From: an uncultured Candidatus Saccharibacteria bacterium | Lineage (GTDB): Bacteria > Patescibacteriota > Minisyncoccia > Sungbacterales > SURF-37 | Direction of reading: 5' to 3' | NCBI GenBank assembly: GCA_964363965.1 | Contig: CAYIKH010000001.1 | Coordinates: 727-64,726, forward strand | Length of the DNA stretch: 64,000 bases | In this document: piece after piece, positions 16,254 to 41,681 of the stretch | Layout: every line of letters starts with the position of its first letter | How positions within the stretch are numbered: position 1 is the first letter of the stretch | Notes under the pieces: model-generated | Databases searched by the model: none | What the model was told of the DNA's origin: nothing | Seen by the model: the letters and a program-made list of their open reading frames with translations, nothing else | Made by a program: the position numbers and the translations under genes

Positions 16254-16316
16254 TCTCATGATTTGGGAGTTGCTGTTTCGGCGGACCGGTGCTATGGTAG
16301 TCACTGCCGAATTTCT

Positions 16317-18629: not shown

Positions 18630-19484
18630 ATGGCAAAGATTGCGGTGATCGGCGCAAGCGGCATGCTCGGCTATGACCTGATGAATGCTGGCCGGCCTGA
18701 CGACACGCTTGTGGGTTTGGCCCATGCCGATATTGAGATTACTGATCCGGCGAGCGTTGCTGTGGCATTAGAACGATGCCGGCCGGAGGTGGTCATCAAT
18801 GCTGTGGCCATCATCAAAACCGAGCTTTGCGAGACCGAGCCGGATCGCGCTTTTTTGGTCAACGCAGTCGGCGCTTACAATGTGGCCAAAGCCGCGGCTG
18901 GACTAGGGGCCGCAGTCGTTTTCATAAGCACGGATTACGTCTTCGACGGCTCCAAACCCTCTTTTACCGAAGAAGATGCGCCTTACCCCTTGAACGTTTA
19001 CGGCGCCTCCAAGCTTGCCGGCGAGATTTTGACAAAAATCGCAAACCCAAAGCATTTCATTATCCGCACCGGCTGGCTCTTCGGCAAAAAAGTGAGCCAC
19101 AAGGGATATAACTTTGTCACCCTCATGCTCGAGCGCGCCAAATCCGAGGCCGAAGTTCGGGTGGTCAATGATCAGACCGGCTCGCCCACCTATACGCTTG
19201 ATTTAGCACTGAAGATTTACGAGCTCATTAGACATCAAGCTCCCTTTGGTATCTATCACATCACCAATCAGGGCGGCGCCACGTGGTACGAATTCGCAAA
19301 AAAAATCTTTGAACTTTCGGGGGTAAGCCCACAACTCATCCCCATCACCACTGCTGAAAGCGGAACAAAAATCGCGCGGCCAGCGTTTTCCGTTCTCGAG
19401 AATCAAGGACTGCCAGAGTTCGGCATCTCACCGCTTCGTCCGTGGCAGGAAGCGCTCCGGGCGTACCTTGACGAAATAATGTAG
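18630..19484 (+). CDS. rfbD: dTDP-4-dehydrorhamnose reductase family
   Basis: MAKIAVIGASGMLG...YGASKLAGE. The start was chosen at MAKIAV, and the ORF frame overlaps the rfbB end. Confidence 0.75.
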   Translation: MAKIAVIGASGMLGYDLMNAGRPDDTLVGLAHADIEITDPASVAVALERCRPEVVINAVAIIKTELCETEPDRAFLVNAVGAYNVAKAAAGLGAAVVFISTDYVFDGSKPSFTEEDAPYPLNVYGASKLAGEILTKIANPKHFIIRTGWLFGKKVSHKGYNFVTLMLERAKSEAEVRVVNDQTGSPTYTLDLALKIYELIRHQAPFGIYHITNQGGATWYEFAKKIFELSGVSPQLIPITTAESGTKIARPAFSVLENQGLPEFGISPLRPWQEALRAYLDEIM

Positions 19485-19565
19485 TTGCTGTACAATTTTA
19501 GCTGCGCTATTTGGGCGTAGCGTTTGTTCTTTTCAAAAATATTCTAAGAGAGGAGGTGAGCGGCG

Positions 19566-20120
19566 GTGCGCTTCCTGCGGATGCTCTGGGAGTGCATCAC
19601 ACTATGGCGGCCAGAACCAGCCACTGAGGAGGAGCTGAGAAAATGCGACGCGGTGTTCGCGTTCGCGGACTCGCGGATGCGGGATGGTTCACCGGGACCA
19701 GGCAATGAGTTCATAGCCGCAGGATGTCGGGAGCTTCGCGAGCGGTACGGGTTACCACTCCTCGTCCAGGATGAGGTGGCGCTTGCGGCGGAGGATCTTG
19801 AATGCCGCTATGTCGCGCGCGGACCTCAGCATGGTAAATCGGGGCGTCGGTGGAATACGGCGACTATCACCGATGAATTTGCCGCCATCTGTCGGCAGGA
19901 GCGATGGTGCCGAATCGTCATCGTCTCCACTCCTGACCATCTCCTGCGCTGCTGCTGGGTTGCGCGTAAGCGCGGCTTCGAAGCGGTATGTGCCGAGATG
20001 CCCGAGGGGCATTACTTCCATCCCGATTTGGCCCTCTGGGCCTGCCGTGGCGGAAAGTACCGCTTCCGGGCGCGCGATTTCCTCGTGCGGCTCTACTTTC
20101 TCTTTCGTGGCGATATATGA
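19566..20120 (+). CDS. Hypothetical protein, DUF218 (YdcF/ElyC)-like
   Basis: IVIVSTPDHLLRC resembles the DUF218 core motif. It has a GTG start with a strong SD (gagaggaggtga) at 19548-19559. Confidence 0.4.
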   Translation: MRFLRMLWECITLWRPEPATEEELRKCDAVFAFADSRMRDGSPGPGNEFIAAGCRELRERYGLPLLVQDEVALAAEDLECRYVARGPQHGKSGRRWNTATITDEFAAICRQERWCRIVIVSTPDHLLRCCWVARKRGFEAVCAEMPEGHYFHPDLALWACRGGKYRFRARDFLVRLYFLFRGDI

Positions 20121-20255
20121 CGGGTGGCCGTGGCCTCGCTACCTTTGATGAGCTCTTCGGGTACGGTGCCGGAAGAGCATCCGGTAGTCGTGAGCACGAG
20201 GCGGCTTCGCACGCGCGAAGCCGCCTTTCTTTTTGTCGATTTTTGAGTTAGATTT

Positions 20256-20648
20256 TTGGATATGCAGTTTCACGAATACCGATTCCACGAGGACGACCGC
20301 CGCAAAGGGCGTTACGACATTGTTTCCGGCCTTGTCGGAGAGATGAATTTTTCCGTACACCCTGCCGGAGTGGTTCCTGAAGAGTGGCACATGCATAAAA
20401 TTCATACCGACTATTTCACGGTGGCCAAAGGCCGGGCACTGTTTCGGCTTCTATATGAGGATGGACGTGAGGAGAAAATCATTTTGAGCGAAAGAGATGC
20501 CAAGACCCTGATCGTGCCTCCTGGCGTTTGGCATAACTACACGGCGCTCGAGCCGACGATTATGATTTTCTACATTGACCGTAAATTCGATGCCGCCGAT
20601 GAATTTCGGAAGCCATGTGATGCCGACGGCTGGAGCGTTGATAGATAG
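20256..20648 (+). CDS. Cupin-fold NDP-4-keto-6-deoxyhexose 3,4-ketoisomerase/epimerase (FdtA/WxcM-like)
   Basis: 130 aa with the WHMHK...TDYFTVAKG...VWHNY His-containing cupin motifs. Confidence 0.55.
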   Translation: MDMQFHEYRFHEDDRRKGRYDIVSGLVGEMNFSVHPAGVVPEEWHMHKIHTDYFTVAKGRALFRLLYEDGREEKIILSERDAKTLIVPPGVWHNYTALEPTIMIFYIDRKFDAADEFRKPCDADGWSVDR

Positions 20649-20650
20649 AT

Positions 20651-21700
20651 ATGAAAGTTGATCCAGTAATTTTAAGCTCGATGTTCGAGGAGCTTAAACG
20701 AGCTCCTCAAATTTATCATCCTTCCGAATACTGGGAGCGGCTGAATAAACGACACGCCGAGCGCATCATCGCCTCCGGTCTTGGTAGTTTCAAGCGATCG
20801 GTGAATTTGAAGTATTTTAGCTGGCGGGTCAGACCTATTCTGCGCCAGCAGCTTTGGCCGGTTTTGGCCGCATTGGCGCGCCTCAATTTATCGCCATTTT
20901 TCAGGAGTGAGTTTAAAAACTATGAAGCGCGACTGGAAGAAGGAGCAAAAGGCTTTGGTCGCTGGTCAGCATTTGTCTATCGGGTTTTTGTTTCGGCCTT
21001 TGCTGATTACCTATCGCGACAAGATCGTATGAAACTGCTTAAGACGATTGATGAGCCGATGTTAGGTAACCCCTTTGCTATTAGTTATCACGGTCGGCTT
21101 ATTTCGCAGGACCTCATAAATTCCATTCTCGAATTTTATAGCGCCACCCAAGCAAGTGACCCTCGGCGCGATATTGGGTCGGTGGCGGAGATTGGAGCCG
21201 GGTACGGGCGCCTGGCTTATGTTTTTTTGGAAGCCCTACCCAAATCAACGTATTGTATTATTGATATTCCACCGGCACTATATATTTCGCAGGAGTATTT
21301 AAGTCAGTTGTTCCCCGGTGAGCGAATTTTTCGTTTCCGGCCTTTTCGTTCTTTCGCCGATGTCAGGGAGGAGTTCGAAACTTCGCGCATACGCTTTTTG
21401 ATGGCCCATCAGATCGAGCTTCTTCCGCCAAAAGGTTTTGATTTGGTGCTGAATGTAAGTTCATTCCAGGAGATGTCGCGCGATCAGATTGCCAATTACA
21501 CCAAGCAATTTGAGCGCATCGGCCGCCGCTATTTTTACACCAAGCAGTGGAAGCGATCACACGTGCGCGACAATGATTTTATCACCGAACATGAATATCC
21601 TGTGCCCGCCGGATGGCAGGCCATCTACCATCGACGCCATCCAATCCAGTCCAAGTTCTTCGAGGTCCTTTACCGCGCCAATCCCGACGGGAAACTCTAG
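20651..21700 (+). CDS. Putative SAM-dependent (sugar O-)methyltransferase, paralogue B
   Basis: 349 aa, co-linear with 15192..16253 at ~70% identity (EIGAGYGRLAY, FYTKQWKRSH). Confidence 0.55.
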   Translation: MKVDPVILSSMFEELKRAPQIYHPSEYWERLNKRHAERIIASGLGSFKRSVNLKYFSWRVRPILRQQLWPVLAALARLNLSPFFRSEFKNYEARLEEGAKGFGRWSAFVYRVFVSAFADYLSRQDRMKLLKTIDEPMLGNPFAISYHGRLISQDLINSILEFYSATQASDPRRDIGSVAEIGAGYGRLAYVFLEALPKSTYCIIDIPPALYISQEYLSQLFPGERIFRFRPFRSFADVREEFETSRIRFLMAHQIELLPPKGFDLVLNVSSFQEMSRDQIANYTKQFERIGRRYFYTKQWKRSHVRDNDFITEHEYPVPAGWQAIYHRRHPIQSKFFEVLYRANPDGKL

Positions 21701-21757
21701 CATTCAAGGTATAAGTAGTAAAGGGCGTGCGCTCGCCGGCGAGGGGCGAAGGCACTC

Positions 21758-22747
21758 TTGATTACTATGACAAAACTCATTGCCGAGGTCTGTCAGAACC
21801 ATAAGGGGAACCGGGGGCTCTTGAAGGAGCTAATTTTTGCCGCAGCCGAAGCCGGCGCTGACATCGTGAAGGGCCAGGTTATTTTTTCCGATGACCTTAC
21901 CTACCGTGAACGCTTTGAAGGGGGAGTCGTGGAACATAATGGAGTTCGCAAGACCATCCAGCGTCCGTACGGCCCGGAGCGCGAACGGCTCTCCAAACTC
22001 GATCTTAACGAGGACGATTACCGCTTTTTTATTGAGGAGTGCTATCGCGCCGGAGTCCGGCCGATGCTTACCGTATTTTCGCGCAAGCGCATTCCCTTTG
22101 CGGCGTCCTTGCCGTGGCAGGGCGAGAAACTGTTTAAGGTGGCCAGCTACGATTGCGCGAGTTTCCCCATGCTCCGCGAACTGGCCGGATATTTCGATCG
22201 TCTCATCGTGTCCACCGGCGGAACGTTCGATGATGAAATCAAACAGGCCGCCGAAATTTTACGATCATCGGCCAAACCTTATGCGCTTCTACACTGCGTG
22301 ACCAGTTATCCCAATACTTTGGCCATGGCTAACCTGGCCCGTATCCGATGGCTGAAGCAGTTTGCGCCTGAGACGGGATGGTCGGATCATACCCTGGTCG
22401 AGCGTGACGGCATCAAGGCAGCCAAGGTCGCGATCATGCTCGGGGCTGATTACGTTGAACGACACTTCACCGTCCTCCCGTCAGAGGAGACAAAGGACGG
22501 ACCGGTTTCGATCACTCCACAGCTCCTGGCCGACCTGAAAGCATTCAGCCGCCTTAGTGGGGAGGAACAGCGCGAAGCCGTAAAGCAAGACATCCCGGAG
22601 TGGCCGATCATGATCGGAGCTTCCGAACGCGAGCTCATCCATACCGAGATGCTTAACCGCGATTACTACCGCGGTCGTTTCGCCAGCCGTGTCGGTGAGG
22701 AATGGGTGTATAACTGGGAGGATGGGTTGGAGAGAGAGAAGGTTTGA
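21758..22747 (+). CDS. NeuB-family (PEP-condensing ulosonic acid synthase-like) enzyme lacking SAF domain
   Basis: IAEVCQNHKGNRGLLKELIFAAAEAGADIVKGQ parallels the NeuB N-terminus. LHCVTSYP and WSDHT parallel the NeuB HC..YP / FSDHS motifs. Confidence 0.5.
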   Translation: MITMTKLIAEVCQNHKGNRGLLKELIFAAAEAGADIVKGQVIFSDDLTYRERFEGGVVEHNGVRKTIQRPYGPERERLSKLDLNEDDYRFFIEECYRAGVRPMLTVFSRKRIPFAASLPWQGEKLFKVASYDCASFPMLRELAGYFDRLIVSTGGTFDDEIKQAAEILRSSAKPYALLHCVTSYPNTLAMANLARIRWLKQFAPETGWSDHTLVERDGIKAAKVAIMLGADYVERHFTVLPSEETKDGPVSITPQLLADLKAFSRLSGEEQREAVKQDIPEWPIMIGASERELIHTEMLNRDYYRGRFASRVGEEWVYNWEDGLEREKV

Positions 22748-23904
22748 TGCGCTACATCGTCACAAACTTTGCCTATGGTACCGGGCCGTACCTGCGGACT
22801 ACGGAATTGGCCATCGCGCTGAACCAACGATTGTTCGAGCTTGGTCGCGAGCGGCTCGGTATCATCGTTCCCTGGGTCTACGGCGAGAAGCAGCGCAGTA
22901 TCATGCGTGAGGAGTTTGGGGGCTACAATACCGTCCATCCCGGGGAGATTCTCCTTGATTCGCACCTCGGTGTGCTCTTAAGAAGCGTTTTCTACGGGAA
23001 TAACACCTACGAGCAGGCGCTTTCCCTTTGGGTGGAGCGGGGCGATGCGGCCAGCCGCGAAGCCCAGTCACATCTCTTGGGGATACTCGAACTTGAAGAT
23101 TTATCCGGCCGGCGCGTTACGGTTGCAGGTGGAGAAATCGTACTAGAACTCAATCGCGCCCCGCGTCTCACTTACGCCGTAGCGCCCAGTTACTCAGCGA
23201 CTTTCGCTCATATCTCGGCCATTCTCCGCGCGGTACTCGAGGTGCCGGAAGCCGAGATCCGGGTGGATCGCGAGCTGGTGCGCCGAGCCATACCGCTTGC
23301 CGAGCGGATCGAGCGGCTCCAGCGGCTGCACTTCGTTGCCGAACCAGGGACTTTCTCCTATTTAGGCACACGTATGCGCTACCCGAACGAAGAATCTTCT
23401 CCTCCCATTGCCCGGCCCCTCGCCACGAACAATAAACCCCTGGCCCCGGGGATCTACGTCACCGTCACTGGCATCCCGGGGCTTGAGCGGCTCTACCAGG
23501 AGGCCCGCGGGCTCGGCCTCACCATTTACACCAATGACCCGGAGGCGGTGCCGGGGGCGAAGCGGCTTCTCCCGCATGTCATACCCAATCCGGCGATCAA
23601 ATTTCAGTTTGCGCGGAGCGGTTGGGGTTCGATCTGGAACTCGCAGCTCTCCGGTACCCCCTTCGTCACCCCAGCCTACGATCCTACCGACGATCCGGAG
23701 ATTTACTTCAATAATCGCTGTCTCGAGGAATTGGGACTGGGCATTAGCTATCGCCGTGAATCTTTTAAGAAACTTCTCGAGCTCGCCGAGGCGTTGCGCC
23801 CGCGAATCAAAGCTATCAACCGCGCGATCCTGGCGCGATTCGGCACTTACGATGGTAACCGTTACATCGCCGAGCGCATCGTTGACAGGCATTTCACCGA
23901 GTGA
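22744..23904 (+). CDS. GT-B fold protein, MurG/PseG-like (glycosyltransferase or UDP-sugar hydrolase)
   Basis: The C-terminal FARSGWGSIWNSQLSGTPFV resembles the Glyco_tran_28_C motif. Confidence 0.4.
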   Translation: MMRYIVTNFAYGTGPYLRTTELAIALNQRLFELGRERLGIIVPWVYGEKQRSIMREEFGGYNTVHPGEILLDSHLGVLLRSVFYGNNTYEQALSLWVERGDAASREAQSHLLGILELEDLSGRRVTVAGGEIVLELNRAPRLTYAVAPSYSATFAHISAILRAVLEVPEAEIRVDRELVRRAIPLAERIERLQRLHFVAEPGTFSYLGTRMRYPNEESSPPIARPLATNNKPLAPGIYVTVTGIPGLERLYQEARGLGLTIYTNDPEAVPGAKRLLPHVIPNPAIKFQFARSGWGSIWNSQLSGTPFVTPAYDPTDDPEIYFNNRCLEELGLGISYRRESFKKLLELAEALRPRIKAINRAILARFGTYDGNRYIAERIVDRHFTE

Positions 23905-23993
23905 GAGGTTGGGGTTGAAATTCCTTCGCGGTAGTCGAGGCCGAGACCTCGATGCCGGTGGAGAAGTATTCTTAAAAGAGGCACATCTGCTAT

Positions 23994-24725
23994 ATGTTTA
24001 ACAACACCCACATTCTCGCGATCATCCCGGCCCGTGGCGGTTCGAAGGGTATTCTCCGGAAGAACCTCCGGTTAGTGGCTGGATTGCCGCTAGTTGTCCA
24101 TAGCATTCTTGCCGCCAAAGCTTCACGCTTAATTGAGCGCACTATTGTCTCTACTGACGACGAGGAGATCGCCGAGGTGGCGCGGAGCTACGGGGCCGAA
24201 GTTCCTTTTCTCCGGCCGGCGGATCTGGCTCTCGACACCACTCCGGATTTCCCGGTTTTCGAGCACTGTCTGAATTGGCTTGAGGAGAGTGAGGAGTACC
24301 GGCCCGATATCGTGGTTCATCTCCGGCCCACCGGCCCCCTTCGCACCGGGTTAGAAATCGACGAGGCGGTCGAGCTCCTGGAGCGTCATCCCGAGGCCGA
24401 CTCGGTCCGCTCGGTGCACGAGCCGGATAAATCTCCCTACAAAATGTGGCGGCTCGAAGGTTCGTACATGGTGCCTTTTTTACGTGATCCCGACTACCCC
24501 GAGCACTATAACGCCCCCCGCCAACTCCTGCCCAAGGTCTACGCTACTAATGCCAACATCGGGGTGGTCCGCTACCGGACACTCCGGGAGAAAGGTTCGG
24601 TCATAGGAGAGCGCGTTTTGCCCTATCCTGTCTCCGGGCCGCACGTGGACATTGATACTGAACTCGATCTTGAACTCGCCGAGCTTCTCTTTCGGAAGCG
24701 CGCGCGGGAGGGCCGCGGGTATTGA
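23994..24725 (+). CDS. CMP-ulosonic acid / acylneuraminate cytidylyltransferase family (CTP_transf_3)
   Basis: AIIPARGGSKGILRKN...VSTDDEEIA is the canonical NeuA/KdsB-family N-terminus. Confidence 0.7.
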   Translation: MFNNTHILAIIPARGGSKGILRKNLRLVAGLPLVVHSILAAKASRLIERTIVSTDDEEIAEVARSYGAEVPFLRPADLALDTTPDFPVFEHCLNWLEESEEYRPDIVVHLRPTGPLRTGLEIDEAVELLERHPEADSVRSVHEPDKSPYKMWRLEGSYMVPFLRDPDYPEHYNAPRQLLPKVYATNANIGVVRYRTLREKGSVIGERVLPYPVSGPHVDIDTELDLELAELLFRKRAREGRGY

Positions 24726-26131
24726 TGCAGCGGCGTTTTATGTCGACGGTCTTCCTCGCCCTAGCCAACTCCAGCCACTACTCGGGTGTCCTCCGGACGC
24801 GCTTTATTGCTGAACTCGCCCGGCACTTTCGCGTCCTCGTTCTCACTCCGCAGCTGGATGATGCGATCGTCAAACGCGATCGCTATTTTCGGAATGGAGG
24901 CGTTTCTTACCATCGTTTCCCTATTACCTATCCGCGTTTCTGGAATGTTTTGGACAGGTATCTGCGCGTGCCGCTTGTCTCCTCCTTCGACCACCTCACC
25001 TACATGCGCTATTTCTATCAGCGGTCCCACGCGCCGATCCGGAAACTCCTCATGGCCTCCCGACGGCTCTTCCCGGCATTCCTCTTCACCACCGATCGGT
25101 TGACGCTCTGGGAGGTGCGTTGGGCTCCGCAGGGTAAGGTACTAGCCGAGCTCTTTCGCACTCACACCCCGATCCTCGTCCTCACCGCCACCCCTGGATT
25201 CACGCCCTTCGAAGCCGAAATCATCGTCGCGGCTAAGCGCTTAGGGGTTCAGACCGCGGCTATCAGCATCAACTACGACAACTTGACTTCCAACGGCAAG
25301 CTCATCCGTAAAACCGACTATCTCGCCGTCTGGAACAATCTCATGCGGCGCGAAGCTAAAGTTTTGCATCGCTATTCGGATGAGCGTTTAGGCCTAGTCG
25401 GGTGTCTGCGCTTTGACCATTATTTTTATGATGAGGAGAATCCGCGTTTCCCCTCGCGCGAAGATTTTCTGAAAGCCAAGGGCCTTGATCCCGGCCGGAA
25501 AACACTGGTCTTTGCCGGCCCGACCCCAACCAATTACCCTCCGCGGCGTGAGTTTATTGCCGAGCTCTTGCGTCTTAAACGCGATGGGCACCTTGACGGC
25601 GATCCAAATATCCTGGTTCGCATTCATCCTAACGATAGTCTGGCAACGTATCGCGAGTTCCTTGGGATGCCGGGCATGCATTTTGAAGGCGCAAGTCGCA
25701 ACGTGCGTCTGGATGGCGGCAAGGGGGTGAGCATGGACGAGGAAGACCTTCTGAACCTTACCGCCACCCTTAAATACGCTGATGTTGTTTTGAATTTCGC
25801 CTCGACCGTGGCCATGGAGGCAGCTATCTTTGACCGGCCGGTCATCAATGTCGCCTTTCCCGACTACCGCCGAATCGTGTATCAATATGAATACAATAAA
25901 CACATCGTTGATACTGGCGGCGTGCGTTTAGCCCGAAGCCCGGAGGAGCTTAGTGAACTAGTAAACATGTATTTCCGCAACCCGGCTCTTGATCGCGAAG
26001 CGCGGGCCAAACTCCTTGAATTTTTTATCCCGTTTCGCGACGGCCGGAGCTGGGCGCGAACTATGGACTTCATTGTGAAAATTACCAAGCCCGGTAGTGA
26101 GAGCTTCTCTCTACTACCGGGCAAGCCGTGA
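24722..26131 (+). CDS. TagF-like CDP-polyol phosphotransferase family protein (GT-B), paralogue 1
   Basis: The C-terminus VVLNFASTVAMEAAIFDRPVINVAFPDYRR...YEYNKHIVDTGGVRLARSPEEL parallels the TagF motif region (..ITDYSS...KP.I....D.EEY...YDYE...GP...T.EEL). Confidence 0.55.
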   Translation: MMQRRFMSTVFLALANSSHYSGVLRTRFIAELARHFRVLVLTPQLDDAIVKRDRYFRNGGVSYHRFPITYPRFWNVLDRYLRVPLVSSFDHLTYMRYFYQRSHAPIRKLLMASRRLFPAFLFTTDRLTLWEVRWAPQGKVLAELFRTHTPILVLTATPGFTPFEAEIIVAAKRLGVQTAAISINYDNLTSNGKLIRKTDYLAVWNNLMRREAKVLHRYSDERLGLVGCLRFDHYFYDEENPRFPSREDFLKAKGLDPGRKTLVFAGPTPTNYPPRREFIAELLRLKRDGHLDGDPNILVRIHPNDSLATYREFLGMPGMHFEGASRNVRLDGGKGVSMDEEDLLNLTATLKYADVVLNFASTVAMEAAIFDRPVINVAFPDYRRIVYQYEYNKHIVDTGGVRLARSPEELSELVNMYFRNPALDREARAKLLEFFIPFRDGRSWARTMDFIVKITKPGSESFSLLPGKP

Positions 26132-27501
26132 AGATGAGAACCGTCCTGATCACAATCTATCAGGCCGTGGAGGCCAAAAACATTCTTCGGACTGATATCA
26201 TACGCTCTTTACTCGCCGAGCCGGATGTCCGTGCAGTATGCCTTACTAAATTTAAGGAGCGGGCTGATTATTACCGGCAGGAGATTCCGCATGAGCGGAT
26301 AATTTATGATTACTGCGACCAGGAACCTGGCGGGGCGCTGGAGCGATACTTCAGCGCTTTAAAGTTTCATCTTATCCGCACGGCCACTACTGATCTCAGG
26401 CGCCGCATGAATTTTGAGGAATCTGGAAATTATTTTTCTTATCTCATTGGTCGAGCTCTAAACTTCCTGCTGGCCCGTGGATCAATACGGAGGCTGGCGC
26501 GGTTTTTGGATTATCACCTAGTTTCTGATTCGGGGTTTGGCGATATTCTTAGGCGCTATCAGCCGGATGTTGTTTTTTTTGCTCATCTTTTTGATGATGC
26601 TGAAATTGCGCTTCTTCGCCAGGCCAAAAAGCGCGGAATCCCAACAGTCGGCTTTATTAATTCATGGGATAAATTGACGGCCCGTTCGGCTGTGCGCCTG
26701 CTTCCGGACAGGCTGGTGGTTTATAACGACATTGTAAAGCAAGAGGCCGTGGAGCACGCCGACATGCCGCCGGAGAAGATCGTGGTTTCGGGCATACCGC
26801 AGTATGATCAATATTTTACCCCAGGACCCGTTTCACGACAGGAATTTTGCGCCAAGGCCGGACTTGATCCAAAACGCGCAATTGTGTTATTGGCGCCCAT
26901 GGGTCGGGCTTTTTCCAACTCGGATTGGGAGATGATTGATATGCTTCATGAAATTATTTCTCCAAGCCAAGGTCTGCCGTTATCCCAGCTTTTGGTGCGC
27001 TTCCAGCCCAATGACTTTATTGATGAGGTTGAAATTTCGCGCCGGCCATGGCTGAGATATTCATTGCCCGGGATTCGCTTTGGAACCAGGCGCGGAGGAG
27101 ACTGGGACATGAGATTTGAAGAGCTAACTCATCTTAATGATACCCTTTTTCATTCCAGTCTCCTGGTTTCCTATGCTTCCAGCATGAGCGTGGATGCGGC
27201 CATATTCGGCAAGCCGGTGATCAACATTGATTTTGAATTGAAGCCCGGGGAGTCCATGTCAAAATCGCCAACTTTTTATTACCAGACCGATCATTATAAA
27301 AAAGCCCTTTTAACCGGCGGCATCAGGTTAGTGAAGAGTCGCGATGAGCTGATACAATGGCTCCGGCGTTACCTCCAAGATCCGAGCCTTGATCGTGAAG
27401 GACGGGAGCGGTTGGTTAAAGAGCAGTGCGGTTTAGTTGACGGTAAGGCCGGAGAGCGAATCGCCAGAGCCATTTTCGGGGTATTACAAGTATTACAATA
27501 A
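26128..27501 (+). CDS. TagF-like CDP-polyol phosphotransferase family protein, paralogue 2
   Basis: VSYASSMSVDAAIFGKPVINIDF...YYQTDHYKKALLTGGIRLVKSRDEL. It overlaps paralogue 1 by ATGA. Confidence 0.55.
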   Translation: MKMRTVLITIYQAVEAKNILRTDIIRSLLAEPDVRAVCLTKFKERADYYRQEIPHERIIYDYCDQEPGGALERYFSALKFHLIRTATTDLRRRMNFEESGNYFSYLIGRALNFLLARGSIRRLARFLDYHLVSDSGFGDILRRYQPDVVFFAHLFDDAEIALLRQAKKRGIPTVGFINSWDKLTARSAVRLLPDRLVVYNDIVKQEAVEHADMPPEKIVVSGIPQYDQYFTPGPVSRQEFCAKAGLDPKRAIVLLAPMGRAFSNSDWEMIDMLHEIISPSQGLPLSQLLVRFQPNDFIDEVEISRRPWLRYSLPGIRFGTRRGGDWDMRFEELTHLNDTLFHSSLLVSYASSMSVDAAIFGKPVINIDFELKPGESMSKSPTFYYQTDHYKKALLTGGIRLVKSRDELIQWLRRYLQDPSLDREGRERLVKEQCGLVDGKAGERIARAIFGVLQVLQ

Positions 27502-27511
27502 GAGTGATATT

Positions 27512-28327
27512 ATGTCCGATTGGGTTTCTAATTTTCCGTTGGTTCGGCATATCCGCGAGCTACGCGAAAAGACCGGTGGATCAGCCAGCATCGGCTGGAT
27601 GTACGATGAGCCGGCGTTTCTTTTATATGCTCTTGCCAAGTGGTATAAGCCCGAACTCGTGATTCAGACCGGGCATCTTTGGGGCAAGTCGGCCATGGTG
27701 GTGCTTGAGGCGCTCCATGACGGTTTTCTCATGTCTGCCGAAGGCATGATGGAGGAGGAGCAGGACGCGGATAAGAAGCTAGGCGCTTTCATCGCCGCAA
27801 ACCGCCCTTCGCCTCCGCAGCGGCCGAAAGTCATCAGCATTGATCCATTGCCAAAAGGCGTCCCGGATTCTGACGCCGGCATACGGTATCTTCGCGAGTA
27901 CGATCCGAATTTTGAGTTCTACCAGATGAAGAGCGACGAGTTTTTTCGAGCGCACGGTGGGCGGCTGGCCAAAGAATTCTCCGGCAGGCGCATCATGGGC
28001 ATTGTTGATGGCGATCACACTTGGGAAGGTTGTATGCAGGATCTCGAGTCATTGGCCAAGCTGGGAGCGCAATTCATCGTCGTTGATGACATGGCCTGGC
28101 TGCCGCACCTTAGGCGCGCCGCAGGAGAGTTTGGCCGCCGGAACGGCTACGAATTTTTCACTCTGCCTTTCTTCACCGGGATGGGCCTTCTTTGGCGGCG
28201 CGGTGAGATATCAATATCGCCGAAAGTTAGGAAGTTCCCGTATTCGCTGAAGGAATTTTTTTACGCCATCGGAGGTTTGGGACTCATCAATTTTGCGCGG
28301 CGGCTTAAGCATCTTATCGTTGGCTAG
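27512..28327 (+). CDS. Class I SAM-dependent methyltransferase, TylF/Methyltransf_24-like
   Basis: VIQTGHLWGKSAMVV and IVDGDHTWEGCMQDLE resemble macrocin-O-methyltransferase-type motifs. Confidence 0.5.
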   Translation: MSDWVSNFPLVRHIRELREKTGGSASIGWMYDEPAFLLYALAKWYKPELVIQTGHLWGKSAMVVLEALHDGFLMSAEGMMEEEQDADKKLGAFIAANRPSPPQRPKVISIDPLPKGVPDSDAGIRYLREYDPNFEFYQMKSDEFFRAHGGRLAKEFSGRRIMGIVDGDHTWEGCMQDLESLAKLGAQFIVVDDMAWLPHLRRAAGEFGRRNGYEFFTLPFFTGMGLLWRRGEISISPKVRKFPYSLKEFFYAIGGLGLINFARRLKHLIVG

Positions 28328-28328
28328 C

Positions 28329-29264
28329 ATGAAAAAGGTTCTTGTTGCTGGTGCAAGTGGTCTTATCGGCGGACATTTAGTGAAGCGGCTGCTCGCCGAT
28401 GGTCATCAGGTCCGCGCAGTTGGGCGCAGGTCGCTTCCGGAATGGCGGCAGTTGCATCCGGCGGCAGAAAACCTGCAGCTTGATTTACGCAAAAAAGAAA
28501 ACTGCTACCGCGCCGTTGAAGGGATGGATGAGGTGTATAATCTTGCCGCGGACATCGGTGGGGCGCGTTACATTGAGTCGAAAAAGGCTGAGCTTATGCT
28601 CTCCGTCCTCATCAATACCCATCTTCTCATGGCCGCTCGCGACCTCGGCGTCAAGCGCTACTTTTATTCTTCGGCCTATGCGGTTTCGGCCGCGGATCAC
28701 GAGCCGGCCGGCGTTCTTGGCGACGGCCACATCTGGGAAAAACTTTTTTCCGAGAAACTTTGCCAATATTTTCGCGAGGATTTTGGGATCCAGACCCGCG
28801 TGGCGCGGCTCCAGAATGTCTATGGTCCCTACGAAACGTACGGCGGGGACCGCGAGCGCGCGACTTCGGCCATGTGTCGCAAGGCTATCGAAGCCAGGCG
28901 TTCCGGCAATCATGAGTTTGAAATTTGGGGTGACGGAACTCAAGAGCGAAATTTTCTATATGTCGATGATGCGCTAGACGGTATTATAAAGCTTTTACCA
29001 AGCGACATCACCGAGCCGGTCGCGTTGGGGAGTTCGGAGTTCATCACCATTAACCAACTCGTGGATATTGTTGAAGGTATCGCCGGCATCAAGTTTGAAC
29101 GCCGCTATAATTTATCTGCTCCGGTAGGCACGCCTCGCCGCCCAGGCCCTCCGCCCGGCCATCCACGCCTTGATTGGCAGTCAAAAATATCGCTCCGCGA
29201 GGGCATGACGCGCCTCTATCGGTGGATGGAGCAGGATATGGAGCGAAAATTAGTAAAGGTATGA
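28329..29264 (+). CDS. NAD-dependent epimerase/dehydratase (extended SDR)
   Basis: VLVAGASGLIGGHLV; ...YSSAY... Confidence 0.7.
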   Translation: MKKVLVAGASGLIGGHLVKRLLADGHQVRAVGRRSLPEWRQLHPAAENLQLDLRKKENCYRAVEGMDEVYNLAADIGGARYIESKKAELMLSVLINTHLLMAARDLGVKRYFYSSAYAVSAADHEPAGVLGDGHIWEKLFSEKLCQYFREDFGIQTRVARLQNVYGPYETYGGDRERATSAMCRKAIEARRSGNHEFEIWGDGTQERNFLYVDDALDGIIKLLPSDITEPVALGSSEFITINQLVDIVEGIAGIKFERRYNLSAPVGTPRRPGPPPGHPRLDWQSKISLREGMTRLYRWMEQDMERKLVKV

Positions 29265-30293: not shown

Positions 30294-31229
30294 ATGACAA
30301 AAGTTCTTGTTACCGGAGGAGCAGGATATCTCGGGTCAATTTTAACCGAGCATCTTTTGGATGCCGGATTTGACGTCATTGTCTTAGACAATCTGATGTA
30401 CGGGCAGGGGAATCTTGGTCATCTTGCTGCAAACCCACGCTTCGAATTTATTCGCGGCGATGGTCGGGACGAGCGTCTAATGAAAGAGCTTATCTCCAAA
30501 GCTGATGTCCTAATCCCGCTTGCGGCCATTGTCGGCGCTCCGGCCTGTGACCGCGATCCGTCGCTGGCCACGTCAGTGAACCTCGAGGCGATTCGGCTCG
30601 TAAATCGCCTCCGCAGCCCGAATCAGCTCGTTGTTTTTCCGAATACCAATAGCGGCTACGGAACGAAGTCCGGCGAGGTCTATTGCACCGAAGATACGTC
30701 ACTTGAGCCGATCACCCTTTATGGCCGGCTGAAAGTCGAGGCCGAAAAAGAGCTTTTGAGCTCGCTGAACACCGTCATACTTCGCCTGGCCACGGTCTTT
30801 GGCCTGTCCCCGCGAATGCGGCTTGATTTGCTGGTTAATGACTTTGTCTACAAGGCTGTCACCGACGGCTATCTCGTGATCTTTGAGAAGGATTTCAAGA
30901 GAAATTACATCCACATCCGCGACGTGGCCGACTGCTTCATCCACTCCATCAAGAACGCGCAAAAAATGGCTGGCCGGCCTTATAACGCCGGACTCGATGA
31001 CGCAAATCTTTCCAAAGAGGAACTTGCGCTCAAGGTCAAGGAATACGTTCCCAAGCTCTACATCCACTTTGCCGAGATCGGTAGCGATCCGGACAAGCGT
31101 AATTACATCGTTTCCAACGAGCGGCTGCGACAGGCCGGGTTTGAGGCCAAGCGCACGATTGACCAGGGCATTCAGGAGCTTATCAAAGGTTACAGAATGA
31201 TGGGCCGCCATCCGTTTAAGAATGTATGA
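30294..31229 (+). CDS. NAD-dependent epimerase/dehydratase (extended SDR)
   Basis: VLVTGGAGYLGSIL; YGRLK (Y-x3-K). Confidence 0.75.
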   Translation: MTKVLVTGGAGYLGSILTEHLLDAGFDVIVLDNLMYGQGNLGHLAANPRFEFIRGDGRDERLMKELISKADVLIPLAAIVGAPACDRDPSLATSVNLEAIRLVNRLRSPNQLVVFPNTNSGYGTKSGEVYCTEDTSLEPITLYGRLKVEAEKELLSSLNTVILRLATVFGLSPRMRLDLLVNDFVYKAVTDGYLVIFEKDFKRNYIHIRDVADCFIHSIKNAQKMAGRPYNAGLDDANLSKEELALKVKEYVPKLYIHFAEIGSDPDKRNYIVSNERLRQAGFEAKRTIDQGIQELIKGYRMMGRHPFKNV

Positions 31230-38243: not shown

Positions 38244-39566
38244 ATCAGTTGAAATGTCGTAGTTGGCCTCGCTTTGCAGTATTTGATCGAGACTGGCGGC
38301 GAGTGCGGCAATGGAGTCTATGTGGTAGCGTTCGGGGATGGGAATGGCGAATTCTCGTTTGCCTCGCAGTTTCGCGGTTGCGGTTTGGCGTTTTTCGCGC
38401 CAGAGCGCGATCGGCCCGACAAAAGCTCTCCAGAGGTGATGCAGCTTCATGCGCCTTGAAATAAGCACCAGCGGCACTCCCAGCGCCCGGATTACGGCCT
38501 CGAGCTTAAGCCGTTTTTTTTCTGCCGCCGGCAAGGTTTCGAGGAAGCCGAATAAATTCAACCAATTGGCTAGAGCCGTAAAAAAATCAGTGTCGAGGTA
38601 GAAAAGTTCCCTAAGATATAATTCGGCGAATCGAGCGTAATTTATCTTGAAGCCGCCGACGAGATCCGGAAGCAATTGTTGAACCCGGAGGTAATTTTCC
38701 AGAATTCCGTTGACTCTTGTGTAGGCGGAAACAGGACTGAATTCAGGCTTGAACGGTCGGGCTTGAAAGCGCCGGTGCGCCGCGGTTGACCAGGCTTGAC
38801 TCATTGATACGCCGAGCCGGCCGACAATAACCACCGGCCGATCGATGAAAAAGCACGATTTGGCAAAAGCAAACATAATTGGCTGAAGGGAATGGATGTT
38901 GGGCATATCGGCGAGTAGGAGAAATCCCAGTCGCATGATGGCTCGTTCTATAACCTGACGGGATATCACCGTGGCCGAAAAATGGAAGCGCGGCAAAGTC
39001 TGTCCCGGTCCTCGCTTCCCAAAGTCATAGAGGCTCCTGATGGTTTCCCTAAGGTCAATTTTCCGGCTTTGGCCGGTAAAGGGTATAATGCCAAGACCGT
39101 TTCTTAGGAAACGGCGCGGATGGTTTTGGTCGTAATAGTAGAAGTGGCTCGCGGTTATGATTTCCGATCCGTCCTGCCGTATTGCCTCGCGAAAAAGTTC
39201 AAGGGCCTGCGGCAGAAGGTAATTGTCGTCATCAAACCACATTACGTATTCGCCCCGCGCTTCTTTTGCGGCGTGGTCCCAGGTTATAAGTCCGGGGCCA
39301 GGCGGGGGATGGAGATAGCGGATGCGCGGATCTCCAGAGTCGGTGGCCGCGCGTTCGGATTCAGGAGACGTGCTCAAATCCGAGATGACAATTTCAAAAT
39401 CCTGAAAGCTTTGCTCCAGAACCGATTTGACGGCCATGCGGATGAGTTCAGGCCGGCCGGTGGTCGGAATAAGTATTGAGAAAAACGGCCTTTTCGTTTT
39501 ACTTTCATTGCTCATAGCAATAAATTCACCATACATTAATACCAAAATGCGCGCCATTATTCTCAC
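38217..39566 (-). CDS. GT2 family glycosyltransferase with extended C-terminal domain
   Basis: FSILIPTTGRPELIRMAVKSVLEQSFQDFEIVISD...WFDDDN. The start is uncertain among GTG 39566, ATG 39557 and ATG 39515. Confidence 0.65.
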   Translation of the reverse strand: MRIMARILVLMYGEFIAMSNESKTKRPFFSILIPTTGRPELIRMAVKSVLEQSFQDFEIVISDLSTSPESERAATDSGDPRIRYLHPPPGPGLITWDHAAKEARGEYVMWFDDDNYLLPQALELFREAIRQDGSEIITASHFYYYDQNHPRRFLRNGLGIIPFTGQSRKIDLRETIRSLYDFGKRGPGQTLPRFHFSATVISRQVIERAIMRLGFLLLADMPNIHSLQPIMFAFAKSCFFIDRPVVIVGRLGVSMSQAWSTAAHRRFQARPFKPEFSPVSAYTRVNGILENYLRVQQLLPDLVGGFKINYARFAELYLRELFYLDTDFFTALANWLNLFGFLETLPAAEKKRLKLEAVIRALGVPLVLISRRMKLHHLWRAFVGPIALWREKRQTATAKLRGKREFAIPIPERYHIDSIAALAASLDQILQSEANYDISTDLQSVKPLQ

Positions 39567-40533
39567 CGAACCGAAAGGTTACTCGAAAACGGCAATAGCC
39601 GTTTTGAACAAGCTCGGCCGGGTGTATCCCTGGTCGGAGGCAAGGAAAAAGCCGGCCATTCTCAAAAGAGCCGGCATCTTGGTGGTCAAACTCGGTATTA
39701 AAATATCAAAACCGCTTCTGGATAAACTTCCGAATTTGAAAATAATCGGCACTTCGACCACCGGACTCAACCACATTGATATAGAAGAAGCCAGACAGCG
39801 GGAGATTCAGGTTATCTCACTTCGTGGAGAGATGCGATTTTTAAAAACCATATTTCCCACAGCCGAGGAGACGATCGGGCTCATAATCATGCTTATTCGC
39901 AAGTTGCCTTGGGGGTTTGACGCGGTTAGGGCCGGCAAGTGGCAAAAGGAGAAGTTTTACGGCCATGAGCTTTTTGGCAAGACATTGGGCATCATCGGCT
40001 TCGGCCGCTTGGGTTCAATGGTTGCAGGTTTTGGCCGGGCTTTGGGCATGAGCGTGATTGCCTGCGACCCTTATGTTTCTGCGGCCGTGATGCGGCGGGC
40101 GGGAGTGAAAAAAGTTTCCATGGATGCTGTTTTCAAACGCGCTGATGTTGTCTCTATCCACGTTCTCCTCACGGGCAAAACCCATAACCTCATCAAACGC
40201 CGCCACTTCCGCCTGATGAAGCCGACGGCTTATTACATTAACACCGCCCGCGGTGAGATAAATAACGAGAAGGCTCTACTCGAGGCCTTGGAGAAAAAAT
40301 GGATTGCCGGTGCCGCTCTCGATGTTCTCGCCAATGAAGATCCGAAGGGGCGCCATGTAAAACGCCATCCGCTTGTGCGCTACGCCAAACGCCATAGGAA
40401 TCTGATTATCGTCCCGCACCTCGGCGGCGCCACATTCGAATCCATGGCGCGTACCGAGGAATTTATCGCCGAGAAGATCGCTCACTTCGTCCAGAAACGC
40501 CGCTCTCCTCTGAGTCGGTATAAAGGGATGTAA
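39547..40533 (+). CDS. D-isomer-specific 2-hydroxyacid dehydrogenase family (glycerate/phosphoglycerate DH-like)
   Basis: GKTLGIIGFGRLGSMVA; the start was chosen at MRAIIL. Confidence 0.75.
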   Translation: MRAIILTEPKGYSKTAIAVLNKLGRVYPWSEARKKPAILKRAGILVVKLGIKISKPLLDKLPNLKIIGTSTTGLNHIDIEEARQREIQVISLRGEMRFLKTIFPTAEETIGLIIMLIRKLPWGFDAVRAGKWQKEKFYGHELFGKTLGIIGFGRLGSMVAGFGRALGMSVIACDPYVSAAVMRRAGVKKVSMDAVFKRADVVSIHVLLTGKTHNLIKRRHFRLMKPTAYYINTARGEINNEKALLEALEKKWIAGAALDVLANEDPKGRHVKRHPLVRYAKRHRNLIIVPHLGGATFESMARTEEFIAEKIAHFVQKRRSPLSRYKGM

Positions 40534-41678: not shown

Positions 41679-41681
41679 ATT

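Follow-up and report, generated by a model that had tools for sequence, protein, structure and literature searches.

A SAF-less NeuB-family synthase module shared by Patescibacteria and DPANN archaea, and a second CMP-activated nonulosonic-type acid as its possible product

The 64-kb stretch of DNA that was analyzed (the window) carries a groundwater Patescibacteria glycan locus, in which genes for a NeuB-family synthase lacking the SAF domain (NeuBs), a GT-B-fold protein (GTB), and a cytidylyltransferase lie together. The three open reading frames, 21758-22747, 22747-23904, and 23994-24725, are present at exactly the coordinates given in the first-pass annotation, and they are conserved genes rather than chance ORFs, because NeuBs has 2572 homologues (E<=1e-10) and GTB has 398. 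These genes, their surroundings, and a second gene set of related function comprise the following features.

20198..20227, + strand: terminator-like hairpin upstream of the module (13-bp stem with 9 G-C pairs, then a T-run)
20256..20648, + strand: 130-aa cupin, weakly FdtA/WxcM-like (Pfam Cupin_2 6e-5, FdtA 1.3e-4, both below cutoff)
20651..21700, + strand: NanM-type putative sugar O-methyltransferase (TIGR04371, 149.9 bits versus a cutoff of 44)
21767..22747, + strand: NeuBs, SAF-less NeuB-family synthase, 326 aa (Pfam NeuB 1.4e-43, SAF absent)
22747..23904, + strand: GTB, 385-aa GT-B-fold protein of a small family, start overlapping the NeuBs stop (TGATG)
23994..24725, + strand: module-specific CMP-ulosonic acid synthetase, 243 aa (CTP_transf_3, PF02348, 9.5e-19, 68.5 bits versus 22.6)
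24725..26131, + strand: TagB/TagF-like GT-B transferase 1, BFO_1060-like (Glyphos_transf 1.9e-6; NF046086 9e-18, below cutoff)
26128..27501, + strand: TagB/TagF-like GT-B transferase 2, BFO_1060-like (Glyphos_transf 2.2e-9; BFO_1060 8.5e-17, below cutoff)
39427..40533, + strand: D-2-hydroxyacid dehydrogenase, PGDH-like, adjoining the second NeuB (2-Hacid_dh_C 1.2e-53)
40542-41678, + strand: SAF-containing NeuB (NeuB and SAF)
41682-42923, + strand: hydrolysing NeuC (Epimerase_2)
42920-43636, + strand: NeuA (CTP_transf_3)

The span originally assigned to the module, 21758-24725, proved too short; the module begins certainly from 21767 and probably at 20256, and it extends at least to 27501. The cupin gene comes first in what is a probable operon. 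The hairpin is the strongest terminator-like site within 19400-28500 in a consensus scan only, and the preceding transcription unit probably ends there. The methyltransferase gene lies directly 5' of the synthase gene and, like the cupin gene, is specific to the window, as neither was found close to the module in any of 82 related loci. A methyltransferase paralogue is encoded at 15192-16253. The synthase ORF can also be read from a TTG at 21758, but its start is probably the ATG at 21767, given an identical public 326-aa protein (P0001) and agreeing gene calls on L077 and L078. The NeuBs/GTB junction, previously described as ATGA coupling, is in fact TGATG, where the stop (TGA, 22745-22747) and the start (ATG, 22747-22749) share one base; the same overlap recurs at 24725 between the cytidylyltransferase and the first TagB-like gene. 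An alternative GTB start, TTG at 22744, would create a four-base overlap (TTGA) with the NeuBs stop. The cytidylyltransferase gene starts after an 89-nt gap 3' of GTB.

Profile searches bear out the description of NeuBs as a NeuB-like enzyme without a C-terminal SAF domain. The NeuB model PF03102 matches residues 25-261 of the ORF at 21758-22747 with 149.6 bits (cutoff 22.1; E 1.4e-43), and neither PF08666 (SAF) in the Pfam search nor a custom SAF HMM matches the protein. Across all six frames of the window, the custom model matches only 40524-41675 (E 1e-31), so that the window holds no stand-alone SAF gene. Structure modelling, which the first-pass annotation had proposed, confirmed the NeuB fold: the AF2 model (pLDDT 89.9) is a TIM barrel followed by a helical tail and one hairpin, again without SAF, and its best Foldseek match is Neisseria meningitidis NeuB (NmNeuB; PDB 1XUU/1XUZ/2WQP) at 27% identity, with NeuB, SpsE, and PseI as the top matches. 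NeuBs thus has the Pfam family and barrel of NeuB, LegI, and PseI, and like these adjoins a CMP-sugar synthetase gene. Its scores are below both equivalog cutoffs (TIGR03569, NeuB, 135 bits versus 399.65; TIGR03586, PseI, 104.8 versus 340.25).

Two metal-binding histidines and the PEP-binding Lys, Ser, Thr, Glu, and Gln residues are common to NmNeuB and NeuBs. In NmNeuB, H215 and H236 bind the metal, and K53, K129, S132, S154, S213, T110, E25, and Q55 bind PEP. Counterparts of NmNeuB E25, N29, K53, Q55, T110, F112, K129, S132, S154, Y186, S213, H215, E234, H236, D247, and S251 are kept in NeuBs, and most of them are invariant in 39 homologues; in NeuBs numbering, E10, K38, Q40, K127, S130, S152, S209, H211, and H236 are invariant and T105 is nearly so. 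The alignment therefore retains the catalytic residues that the first-pass annotation had allowed might be missing. Differences from NmNeuB include the replacement of E134 by Asp and of N184 by Thr.

The most pronounced differences lie outside this catalytic set. The SAF (antifreeze-like) domain of NmNeuB is shrunk to a vestige of about 25 residues in NeuBs, and R314, the SAF residue that contacts the substrate in NmNeuB, has no counterpart, as the alignment ends before it. NeuBs instead contains a conserved, Arg/Lys-rich insertion of 14 residues after beta2, a 4-residue insertion after the first metal-binding His, and an Arg-rich C-terminal tail; R50, R52, K65, R69, R77, R111, R291, R301, R305, and R307 are invariant basic residues of the NeuBs-specific insertion and tail. 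SAF loss combined with these basic elements suggests a substrate pocket built differently from that of NeuB, possibly for an anionic sugar. The architecture is a property of the clade: the best 120 homologues are 63-75% identical to NeuBs, besides one identical sequence, and the more than 100 in this identity range are all 303-345 aa long, with a SAF match in none.

NeuB homologues without SAF make up about 30% of UniProt NeuB entries and are mostly environmental (PMC8208679). Those homologues and a 290-aa Leptospira borgpetersenii protein (PDB 6NCS) resemble NeuBs in having the NeuB barrel without SAF, but 6NCS is only 25% identical to it. The NeuBs clade differs from the surveyed homologues in its own conserved tail, MTHTEMLNRDYYRGRFAS, and in its fixed GT-B partner, and it occurs in Patescibacteria and DPANN archaea, neither of which is mentioned in that survey (PMC8208679).

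GTB has no sequence match in Pfam, NCBIfam, or the PDB, and its family, with only about 265 sequence clusters worldwide, has no Pfam model. It was first described as a MurG/PseG-like GT-B protein. The fold is indeed GT-B, with two Rossmann-like domains and an inter-domain cleft, but the likeness to MurG and PseG was not supported by structure, in which the nearest family is GT1, a family of genuine transferases. A nucleotide-sugar motif reminiscent of PSPG (RSGWGS...DDPE) aligns with a plant UGT; this marginal profile match (8I0D, E 0.99) is the only sequence link to GT1, and no UDPGT, Glyco_transf_28, or MGT match was obtained. The G-loop of GTB (YGTGPYLR) has an invariant Pro15 and no His, whereas a GT28-like protein that occupies the GTB gene slot in L156 has His at this position. 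PseG and MurG also have a G-loop His, and His17 of PseG acts as a base. Both the L156 protein and a distant GTB family member, P0363, match the MurG-type family Glyco_tran_28_C. More distant homologues in DPANN archaea (25-35% identity) reside in ordinary glycan loci without NeuB. GTB may be an NDP-sugar hydrolase that feeds NeuBs or a true transferase; its likeness to GT1, the Pro in place of His, and the NeuB-free loci of its distant homologues make a transferase role at least as natural.

Directly 3' of GTB, a CMP-ulosonic acid cytidylyltransferase was found as expected. Besides CTP_transf_3, it matches PseF over model positions 1-221 of 222 (2.9e-42), although its 144.8 bits are below the equivalog cutoff of 205.7. 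KdsB models score only 37-46 bits against cutoffs of 155-281 and align with just the N-terminal 70-135 residues. Because the match is full-length on PseF/NeuA and only partial on KdsB, an 8-carbon product is disfavored, and the acid would probably be a 9-carbon, sialic-acid-like sugar rather than a Kdo-like one. The enzyme is only 44% identical to its NeuA paralogue at 42920.

The two genes that follow encode TagB-like proteins in which Glyphos_transf is above the Pfam cutoff (27.5 and 37.2 bits versus 22.1), while the BFO_1060 model NF046086 matches at 64.5 and 61.3 bits, far under its cutoff of 200. The protein encoded at 24725..26131 is a candidate ulosonic-acid transferase. BFO_1060/Tanf_01245 is the Pse/Leg transferase of Tannerella forsythia and has a TagB-like domain; its acceptor in the O-glycan is the uronic-acid sugar ManNAcA (PMC5420450). 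The locus in that organism resembles the window in that CMP-nonulosonic acid genes lie beside TagB/Glyphos_transf-like transferases and methyltransferases, but a GTB homologue is not described there. The Tannerella synthase is presumably a standard SAF-containing PseI or LegI.

A separate neuB-neuC-neuA set is present at 40542-43636, as first annotated. Its NeuB has a SAF match (4.5e-8, Pfam) and its NeuC is above the TIGR03568 cutoff, but "canonical" overstates the case, since this NeuB is under both equivalog cutoffs. The two NeuB proteins of the window are 29% identical. The SAF-containing NeuB type is found in related loci and often linked to a 2-hydroxyacid dehydrogenase, a recurrent neighbor of the module that is encoded no more than 5 kb from GTB in 18 of 49 loci. 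In a few relatives (L031, L040, L042, and L075), the SAF-containing type adjoins GTB in place of NeuBs, and the two sets may for that reason not be fully independent.

About 100 loci of Patescibacteria and DPANN archaea contain NeuBs, GTB, and the cytidylyltransferase as a recurring group, and the gene order NeuBs-GTB-CMP-TagF-TagF is shared by the window and L001/L009. Synteny was counted in 49 GTB-anchored and 20 NeuBs-anchored loci, each flanked by 5 kb or more on either side. GTB is accompanied by the cytidylyltransferase in 38, by NeuBs in at least 32, by a CBS-domain NDP-sugar 6-dehydrogenase in 32, and by NeuC in only 7 of the 49. The corresponding NeuBs-anchored figures are 20 for the cytidylyltransferase (within 5 kb), 17 for GTB, 16 for the dehydrogenase, 12 for a TagF-like protein, and 3 for NeuC, which indicates that NeuBs usually has GTB nearby but no NeuC-type enzyme to supply free sugar. 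The GTB-NeuBs adjacency is very tight, often overlapping, and occurs in both gene orders; GTB is absent from 10 of 36 NeuBs loci, three of which have a HAD hydrolase and a Man-1-P guanylyltransferase in its slot. NeuC is found near NeuBs without a SAF-type NeuB in L004/L027, L049, L062, L002, and L005, and NeuBs might thus simply use the NeuC product.

The CBS-domain dehydrogenase, encoded in about 80% of the roughly 100 loci, is a full nucleotide-sugar dehydrogenase of 571 aa (TIGR03026, 366 bits) in which the catalytic Cys is retained (motif GGACLEKD) and a CBS pair like that of KpsF lies at the N terminus. UDP-ManNAc dehydrogenase is its best equivalog, but it is far under every equivalog cutoff. 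It resembles WecC/WbpA-type NDP-sugar 6-dehydrogenases and the CBS pair of KpsF/KdsD; characterized WecC/WbpA-type enzymes lack the combination of CBS pair and dehydrogenase and the fusion to a GT-B protein. Such a fusion, of GTB, CBS, and UDPG_MGDP_dh, exists in the 985-aa Woesearchaeota protein P0265, whose gene follows those for a cytidylyltransferase and a 316-aa NeuB. The window itself has only a truncated UDPG_MGDP_dh (48347-49324) and no CBS-dehydrogenase, so the idea of an NDP-uronate precursor cannot be read from this locus.

On balance, the genes from about 20256 (certainly 21767) to 27501 would be a self-contained module for the synthesis and transfer of a second CMP-activated nonulosonic-type acid, a reading held with somewhat better than even confidence. 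That NeuBs keeps every metal- and PEP-binding residue of NeuB suggests that it acts as a Mn2+/PEP-dependent aldol-type synthase, joining PEP to a free sugar in its open-chain aldehyde form to yield a 3-deoxy-2-ulosonic acid. GTB, translationally coupled to it, would most likely strip the nucleotide from an NDP-sugar and supply NeuBs. This step is the weakest link; it would parallel the GT-B-fold hydrolases of the PseG-PseI and NeuC-NeuB pairs, to neither of which GTB has detectable sequence similarity, and GTB is a candidate hydrolase only. The adjacent dehydrogenase of most relatives would provide this NDP-sugar as an NDP-uronic acid. Family membership and co-occurrence in 20 of 20 loci suggest that the cytidylyltransferase converts the acid to its CMP ester. 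The two TagB/BFO_1060-like enzymes (24725-27501), weakly homologous to the Tannerella transferase, would then add the sugar to the surface glycan built by the rest of the window, and the methyltransferase may O-methylate the product in the window organism only. Two different CMP-ulosonic acids, as first proposed, remain the natural reading, since the NeuBs unit has its own cytidylyltransferase and recurs in relatives, often next to a second NeuB-NeuC-NeuA set that likewise has one; the suggested 8-carbon variant is not favored by the partial KdsB match.

The role of GTB is where the principal alternative departs. If GTB is a true glycosyltransferase, it would, with the dehydrogenase of relatives, install a uronic acid such as ManNAcA as the acceptor for an ulosonic acid added by the TagB-like enzymes; the sugar for NeuBs would come from NeuC or, as ManNAc, mannose, or a similar compound, from central metabolism, and a second CMP-ulosonic acid would still be made. 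This is a real but lesser possibility. The PSPG-like donor motif, the His-free G-loop, and the distant homologues in NeuB-free loci agree with it, as do the TagB-like Tannerella transferase with its ManNAcA acceptor (PMC5420450), NeuC immediately 3' of NeuBs in L004/L027, and GTB beside SAF-type NeuB in the four relatives noted above; the P0265 fusion equally fits a transferase using the product of the dehydrogenase. However, only 3 of 20 and 6 of 32 loci have NeuC at a distance of 5 kb or less from NeuBs, which would leave most modules without a source of free sugar, and the tight adjacency of GTB and NeuBs in both orders is not specifically predicted. In addition, the window retains GTB yet has no intact uronic-acid dehydrogenase.

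The basic residues of NeuBs would also fit a phosphate or another anionic group, and NeuBs could be a sugar-phosphate:PEP synthase like the animal Neu5Ac-9-P or Bacteroides Kdn-9-P synthases, using a sugar phosphate of central metabolism, for example Man-6-P, with a phosphatase acting before CMP activation and GTB and the dehydrogenase serving other parts of the glycan. The usual absence of NeuC nearby points the same way, as do HAD hydrolases, which directly adjoin NeuBs in L144, L154, and L159, all three without GTB, and lie near it in L005. This proposal is nevertheless improbable: a HAD phosphatase is not a conserved neighbor and does not appear among the most recurrent gene clusters, the HAD proteins found resemble phosphoglycolate phosphatase or beta-phosphoglucomutase types rather than KdsC, the phosphatase type for Kdn-9-P, and their pairing with a guanylyltransferase suggests NDP-sugar synthesis instead. 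The sole HAD protein of the window belongs to a heptose gene set 8 kb from the module. SAF loss and scores far under the equivalog cutoffs could, finally, be read as decay of a redundant duplicate of neuB-neuC-neuA, a fate the first-pass annotation had also considered, or as signs of a non-catalytic or regulatory paralogue. The ORFs are intact and NeuBs is conserved; its catalytic residues are invariant across 39 homologues, none of 44 clade members deviates in length or tail motif, and the module is conserved in two domains of life. The 29% identity to the other NeuB indicates an ancient paralogue rather than a recent copy, and this explanation is very improbable.

A more specific form of the module reading would be a pathway common to the ultra-small Patescibacteria and DPANN archaea and dedicated to an undescribed acidic sugar. 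An NDP-hexose would be oxidized to an NDP-uronic acid by the CBS-regulated dehydrogenase, released as free uronic acid by a new GT-B hydrolase family (the 385-aa GTB), and condensed with PEP by NeuBs to a dicarboxylic "nonulosaric" acid, such as 9-carboxy-Neu5Ac or 9-carboxy-Kdn, which would be CMP-activated and displayed at the cell surface. This version is speculative and rather unlikely. If it is true, such a surface sugar, specific to the lineage, could play a part in how these episymbionts attach to their hosts.

Nonulosonic acids are key surface determinants, and no paper linking them to Patescibacteria was found in the literature searched. The module described here is conserved across CPR bacteria and DPANN archaea, and its synthase is without the sugar-contacting domain of every characterized NeuB. 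Should the product of NeuBs be just Neu5Ac, Leg, or Kdn, the SAF domain would be dispensable for catalysis. If the product is instead a new sugar, the chemical repertoire of sialic-acid-like sugars would grow, a new enzyme family, NDP-sugar hydrolase or transferase, would be defined, and the surface glycans with which uncultivated episymbionts may contact their hosts would become open to concrete tests.

The SAF-less synthase is encoded within an open reading frame at 21758-22747 that matches the Pfam NeuB family over residues 25-261 (1.4e-43) and has no match to SAF; its paralogue at 40542-41678 contains both domains. In public gene calls, as in a 326-aa database protein of identical sequence, the synthase starts at the ATG at 21767. 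The first-pass annotation described a NeuB-family frame without SAF, a GT-B partner and a cytidylyltransferase, an observation confirmed by profile matches and by the AlphaFold fold. The ATGA coupling given for the first two genes was incorrect: the synthase stop codon (TGA, 22745-22747) shares one base with the GT-B start codon (ATG, 22747), and the junction reads TGATG. The module comprises the following genes:

21767-22747, + strand, SAF-less NeuB-family synthase, 326 aa
22747-23904, + strand, GT-B-fold protein, 385 aa
23994-24725, cytidylyltransferase (CTP_transf_3), 243 aa, after an 89-nt gap
24725-26131, TagF/TagB-like GT-B protein, weak match to the BFO_1060 family
26128-27501, TagF/TagB-like GT-B protein, weak match to the BFO_1060 family

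The cytidylyltransferase aligns end to end with the PseF model (2.9e-42, under the cutoff), matches KdsB models only partially, and is 44% identical to the NeuA paralogue of the window. Its stop codon overlaps the start of the first TagF/TagB-like gene, again by TGATG. BFO_1060/Tanf_01245 is the enzyme that transfers pseudaminic or legionaminic acid derivatives in Tannerella forsythia (PMC5420450). Upstream lies a strong terminator-like hairpin (20198-20227), which points to a transcription unit that begins with a cupin gene (20256), followed by a NanM-type methyltransferase gene (20651). Both were rejected as core parts of the module, since they occur in 0/82 related loci.

Loss of the metal- and PEP-binding residues, which would disqualify the synthase, is contradicted by alignment with Neisseria meningitidis NeuB, in which E25, N29, K53, Q55, T110, F112, K129, S132, S154, Y186, S213, H215, E234, H236, D247 and S251 are all kept, with substitutions at E134 (to Asp) and N184 (to Thr). 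The protein is intact and catalytically equipped, and the aligned catalytic positions are invariant or nearly so in 39 homologues. In its AlphaFold model (pLDDT 89.9), the TIM barrel gives way to four helices (254-307) and one hairpin (308-318). The top Foldseek matches were NeuB (27% identity), the SAF-less Leptospira protein 6NCS (25%), SpsE and PseI, above DAHP and KDO8P synthases. The enzyme belongs to the NeuB Pfam family while falling outside the SAF/R314 feature and the equivalog thresholds of the characterised synthases.

The tail motif of the synthase (EMLNRDYYRGRFAS) aligns with the linker and first strand of SAF in the window's other NeuB (EDEAVFRPYFRKSLMA). The chain stops shortly afterwards, which leaves a SAF vestige with no counterpart of R314. 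A custom SAF HMM, run over the window in six frames, revealed no stand-alone or split SAF domain, which, together with the missing Pfam match, upholds the reported lack of SAF. The architecture is uniform in the first locus set, where 44/44 members of the SAF-less clade are 312-355 aa long and extend ~94 residues past the ERHF motif, compared to 114-137 residues in SAF-bearing paralogues. Since SAF-less NeuB homologues, uncharacterised, are already known (PMC8208679), the absence of SAF is by itself not new. Specific to this clade are a 14-residue insertion after beta2 (RERFEGGVVEHNGVRKTIQRP) and invariant basic residues (R50, R52, K65, R69, R77, R111, R291, R301, R305 and R307), features that hint at an anionic substrate.

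The 385-aa partner has no match in Pfam, NCBIfam or PDB sequences, and its classification extends to fold class only. It had been described as a MurG/PseG-like GT-B protein; the AlphaFold model (pLDDT 93.8) confirms the GT-B fold, and the remainder of that label is only a loose description. Among 1.84 billion cluster representatives, a full HMMER scan recovered only 265 relatives, which indicates that the family of this GT-B enzyme is small and isolated. No sequence bridge to the very large GT1, GT4 or GT28 families was detectable beyond a marginal PSPG-motif match, the sole result of a profile search of solved structures, and a distant family member (P0363) with Glyco_tran_28_C matches. An hhalign comparison with a GT28-like protein from a related locus (L156) was marginal, and phmmer with the latter against solved structures returned only spurious armadillo-repeat matches. 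The family shares two invariant motifs, NFxYGxGPxLR, located in the first loop, and ARxGWxSxW...DxxDDxEIxxN, located in the donor-binding region.

A reciprocal scan of metagenome contigs anchored on the SAF-less NeuB yielded 80 loci. Species-representative genomes scanned with the GT-B profile yielded 71, mostly from Patescibacteria and many from DPANN archaea, with single Acidobacteriota, Bdellovibrio and Elusimicrobia MAGs. Among the synthase-anchored loci, the GT-B gene lies <=1.5 kb from the synthase in 24/36 with >=1.5 kb on both sides.

Neighbours of the SAF-less synthase (20 loci with >=5 kb on both sides) and, <=5 kb away, of the GT-B gene (49 loci with >=5 kb on both sides, from the 71 plus the window)
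Neighbour: near synthase; near GT-B gene
Cytidylyltransferase: 20/20; 38/49
GT-B protein: 17/20; not applicable
SAF-less NeuB: not applicable; at least 32/49
CBS-dehydrogenase (near GT-B: CBS + NDP-sugar 6-dehydrogenase, 571 aa): 16/20; 32/49
TagF-like transferase: 12/20; 17/49
2-hydroxyacid dehydrogenase (near GT-B: D-2-hydroxyacid dehydrogenase): 4/20; 18/49
SAF-type NeuB (synthase loci): 4/20
NeuC: 3/20; 7/49

The genes typically run in the order dehydrogenase, (cytidylyltransferase), (2-hydroxyacid dehydrogenase), GT-B, SAF-less NeuB, (cytidylyltransferase). Small frames of about 105 aa beside the synthase in L001, L002 and L005 are mutually unrelated and absent from the window. The CBS-dehydrogenase is a complete nucleotide-sugar dehydrogenase (TIGR03026, 366 bits; best equivalog, UDP-ManNAc dehydrogenase) that keeps the catalytic Cys and carries a KpsF-like CBS pair. 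On a Woesearchaeota contig (JACRKG010000019.1; locus L079, 8001-10958), the GT-B protein, the CBS pair and the NDP-sugar dehydrogenase form a natural 985-aa fusion (P0265), with a cytidylyltransferase and a 316-aa NeuB encoded upstream; a Capsule_synth (KpsC/KpsS-type) gene sits at the edge of that locus. Among species-representative relatives, the one closest to the window's GT-B protein (63% identity) is encoded at 10001-11152 of L047, a 20-kb locus with no SAF-less NeuB. There, a 23-residue copy of the GT-B N-terminus (9179-9247; 91% identical to the window protein) directly follows the dehydrogenase gene, ~750 bp upstream of the full GT-B gene, in what looks like a local rearrangement.

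The window itself represents a large surface-glycan locus; the genome is that of a groundwater, Parcubacteria/Paceibacteria-like member of the Patescibacteria. Hainich groundwater contigs carry proteins identical to those of the module, and the nearest homologues of the synthase and GT-B protein bear names such as Parcubacteria, Sungbacteria and Kaiserbacteria. From ~4.5 kb to 52 kb, nearly all genes are glycan-related; besides RmlB- and RmlD-like enzymes, several SDRs, GT2/GT4 enzymes and a Bac_transf initiating transferase, they include:

6329-7690 and 16263-17543, + strand, sugar C-methyltransferases (Methyltransf_13/14)
15192-16253 and 20651-21700, + strand, NanM-type O-methyltransferases
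31226-34356, + strand, complete-looking GDP-D-glycero-D-manno-heptose set (NTP-transferase, GHMP kinase, HAD phosphatase, SIS isomerase) with flanking SDR enzymes
39427-40533, + strand, PGDH-like D-2-hydroxyacid dehydrogenase, directly upstream of the SAF-containing NeuB
45923-48253, + strand, Wzy_C (O-antigen ligase-like) protein with a C-terminal TPR array, 776 aa
48347-49324, + strand, UDPG_MGDP_dh protein, 325 aa, with N-terminal and central domains and lacking the C-terminal UDP-binding domain

The four methyltransferases suggest that the sugars are heavily methylated. The Wzy_C-TPR protein is a candidate for the ligase or oligosaccharyltransferase of this glycan; 15 related loci encode homologues of it close to the module. 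The UDPG_MGDP_dh protein shares only 24% identity with the CBS-dehydrogenase found alongside the module in relatives and may be a truncated or pseudogenised nucleotide-sugar dehydrogenase; the gene after it is on the opposite strand and ends at 49385. Four + strand frames (8788-10749, 11303-13210, 27437-28327 and 29174-30292; 653, 635, 296 and 372 aa) have no Pfam match, and the last two have none in NCBIfam; L001 also encodes a 653-aa protein with no Pfam match. The first 2000 nt of the window (1-2000) have a G+C content of 0.378 and negative GC skew, compared to 0.51-0.59 in the remainder; this edge segment could be foreign or differ in some other way.

The second set had been called a canonical neuB-neuC-neuA set, a label that does not fit: its NeuB reaches neither equivalog cutoff and is part of a clade of 365-384 aa that, in these loci, often adjoins a 2-hydroxyacid dehydrogenase. 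The PGDH-like dehydrogenase recurs beside NeuB and cytidylyltransferase genes in 18/49 related loci; a literature search found no role for 2-hydroxyacid dehydrogenases in nonulosonic acid pathways. As listed, its frame overlaps the convergent GT2 gene at 38217-39566 (- strand), so its start is probably later. In L006, L007, L011 and L012, the SAF-less module directly adjoins a SAF-NeuB-NeuC-NeuA set, which has a cytidylyltransferase of its own. Together with synteny, clade uniformity and the gene fusion, these side-by-side sets rule out a pseudogene or a recent duplicate. That the genes form a separate, functional ulosonic-acid module is well supported, most strongly by comparative genomics, although this module may not be fully independent of the second set.

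A second CMP-ulosonic acid is the best reading of the module: synthase and cytidylyltransferase pair almost obligatorily, the PEP and metal site is intact, and TagB-like transferases are present. The proposal of two ulosonic acids in one locus is partly supported, namely as regards a separate second module; its 8-carbon variant is disfavoured: the cytidylyltransferase is NeuA/PseF-like, 44% identical to the NeuA paralogue, with weak and partial likeness to KdsB, which favours a predicted 9-carbon product over a Kdo-like one. A heptose substrate giving a 10-carbon product, raised by the GDP-heptose genes near the module in the window and L005, was rejected because such genes occur in 3-4/82 loci. 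Condensation of PEP onto an NDP-hexose 6-aldehyde from a stalled dehydrogenase was likewise rejected, as the catalytic Cys for full oxidation is kept.

By analogy with PseG and NeuC, we prefer to view the GT-B protein as an NDP-sugar hydrolase. It would remove the nucleotide from an NDP-sugar, in most relatives an NDP-uronic acid, and thereby feed the synthase. This role is preferred because the synthase requires a free reducing sugar, NeuC is mostly absent nearby, the GT-B protein is the tightest neighbour of the synthase, and it occurs in a fusion with the enzyme that would produce its substrate. Several observations weaken the hydrolase idea and make a uronic-acid transferase the main rival; such an enzyme would build the acceptor for the nonulosonic acid, as in the T. 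forsythia glycan, where the latter is attached to ManNAcA (PMC5420450). The closest likeness of the GT-B protein is to true transferases, its G-loop has Pro where the L156 GT28-like protein (GNGLGHIKR) has His, and distant homologues occur in NeuB-free glycan loci of DPANN.

Gene content also bears on this rival. Ten synthase loci lack the GT-B gene; three of them (L144, L154 and L159) have a HAD hydrolase and a Man-1-P guanylyltransferase-like enzyme in its slot, between dehydrogenase and synthase, and L156 has the 352-aa Glyco_tran_28_C protein there (4376-5452), arrangements that may represent non-orthologous replacement. NeuC directly follows the SAF-less NeuB in some loci (L004/L027), a few loci pair a SAF-type NeuB with the GT-B gene, and the window has no intact dehydrogenase, only the truncated one at 48347-49324.

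In the literature library searched, no paper on nonulosonic acids in CPR/Patescibacteria was found. The module resembles the classical PseG-PseI-PseF and NeuC-NeuB-NeuA trios followed by a nonulosonic acid transferase. The familiar part is this overall route from ulosonic acid synthesis through CMP activation to transfer; the new part is a conserved, lineage-restricted module with an unassigned GT-B enzyme family.
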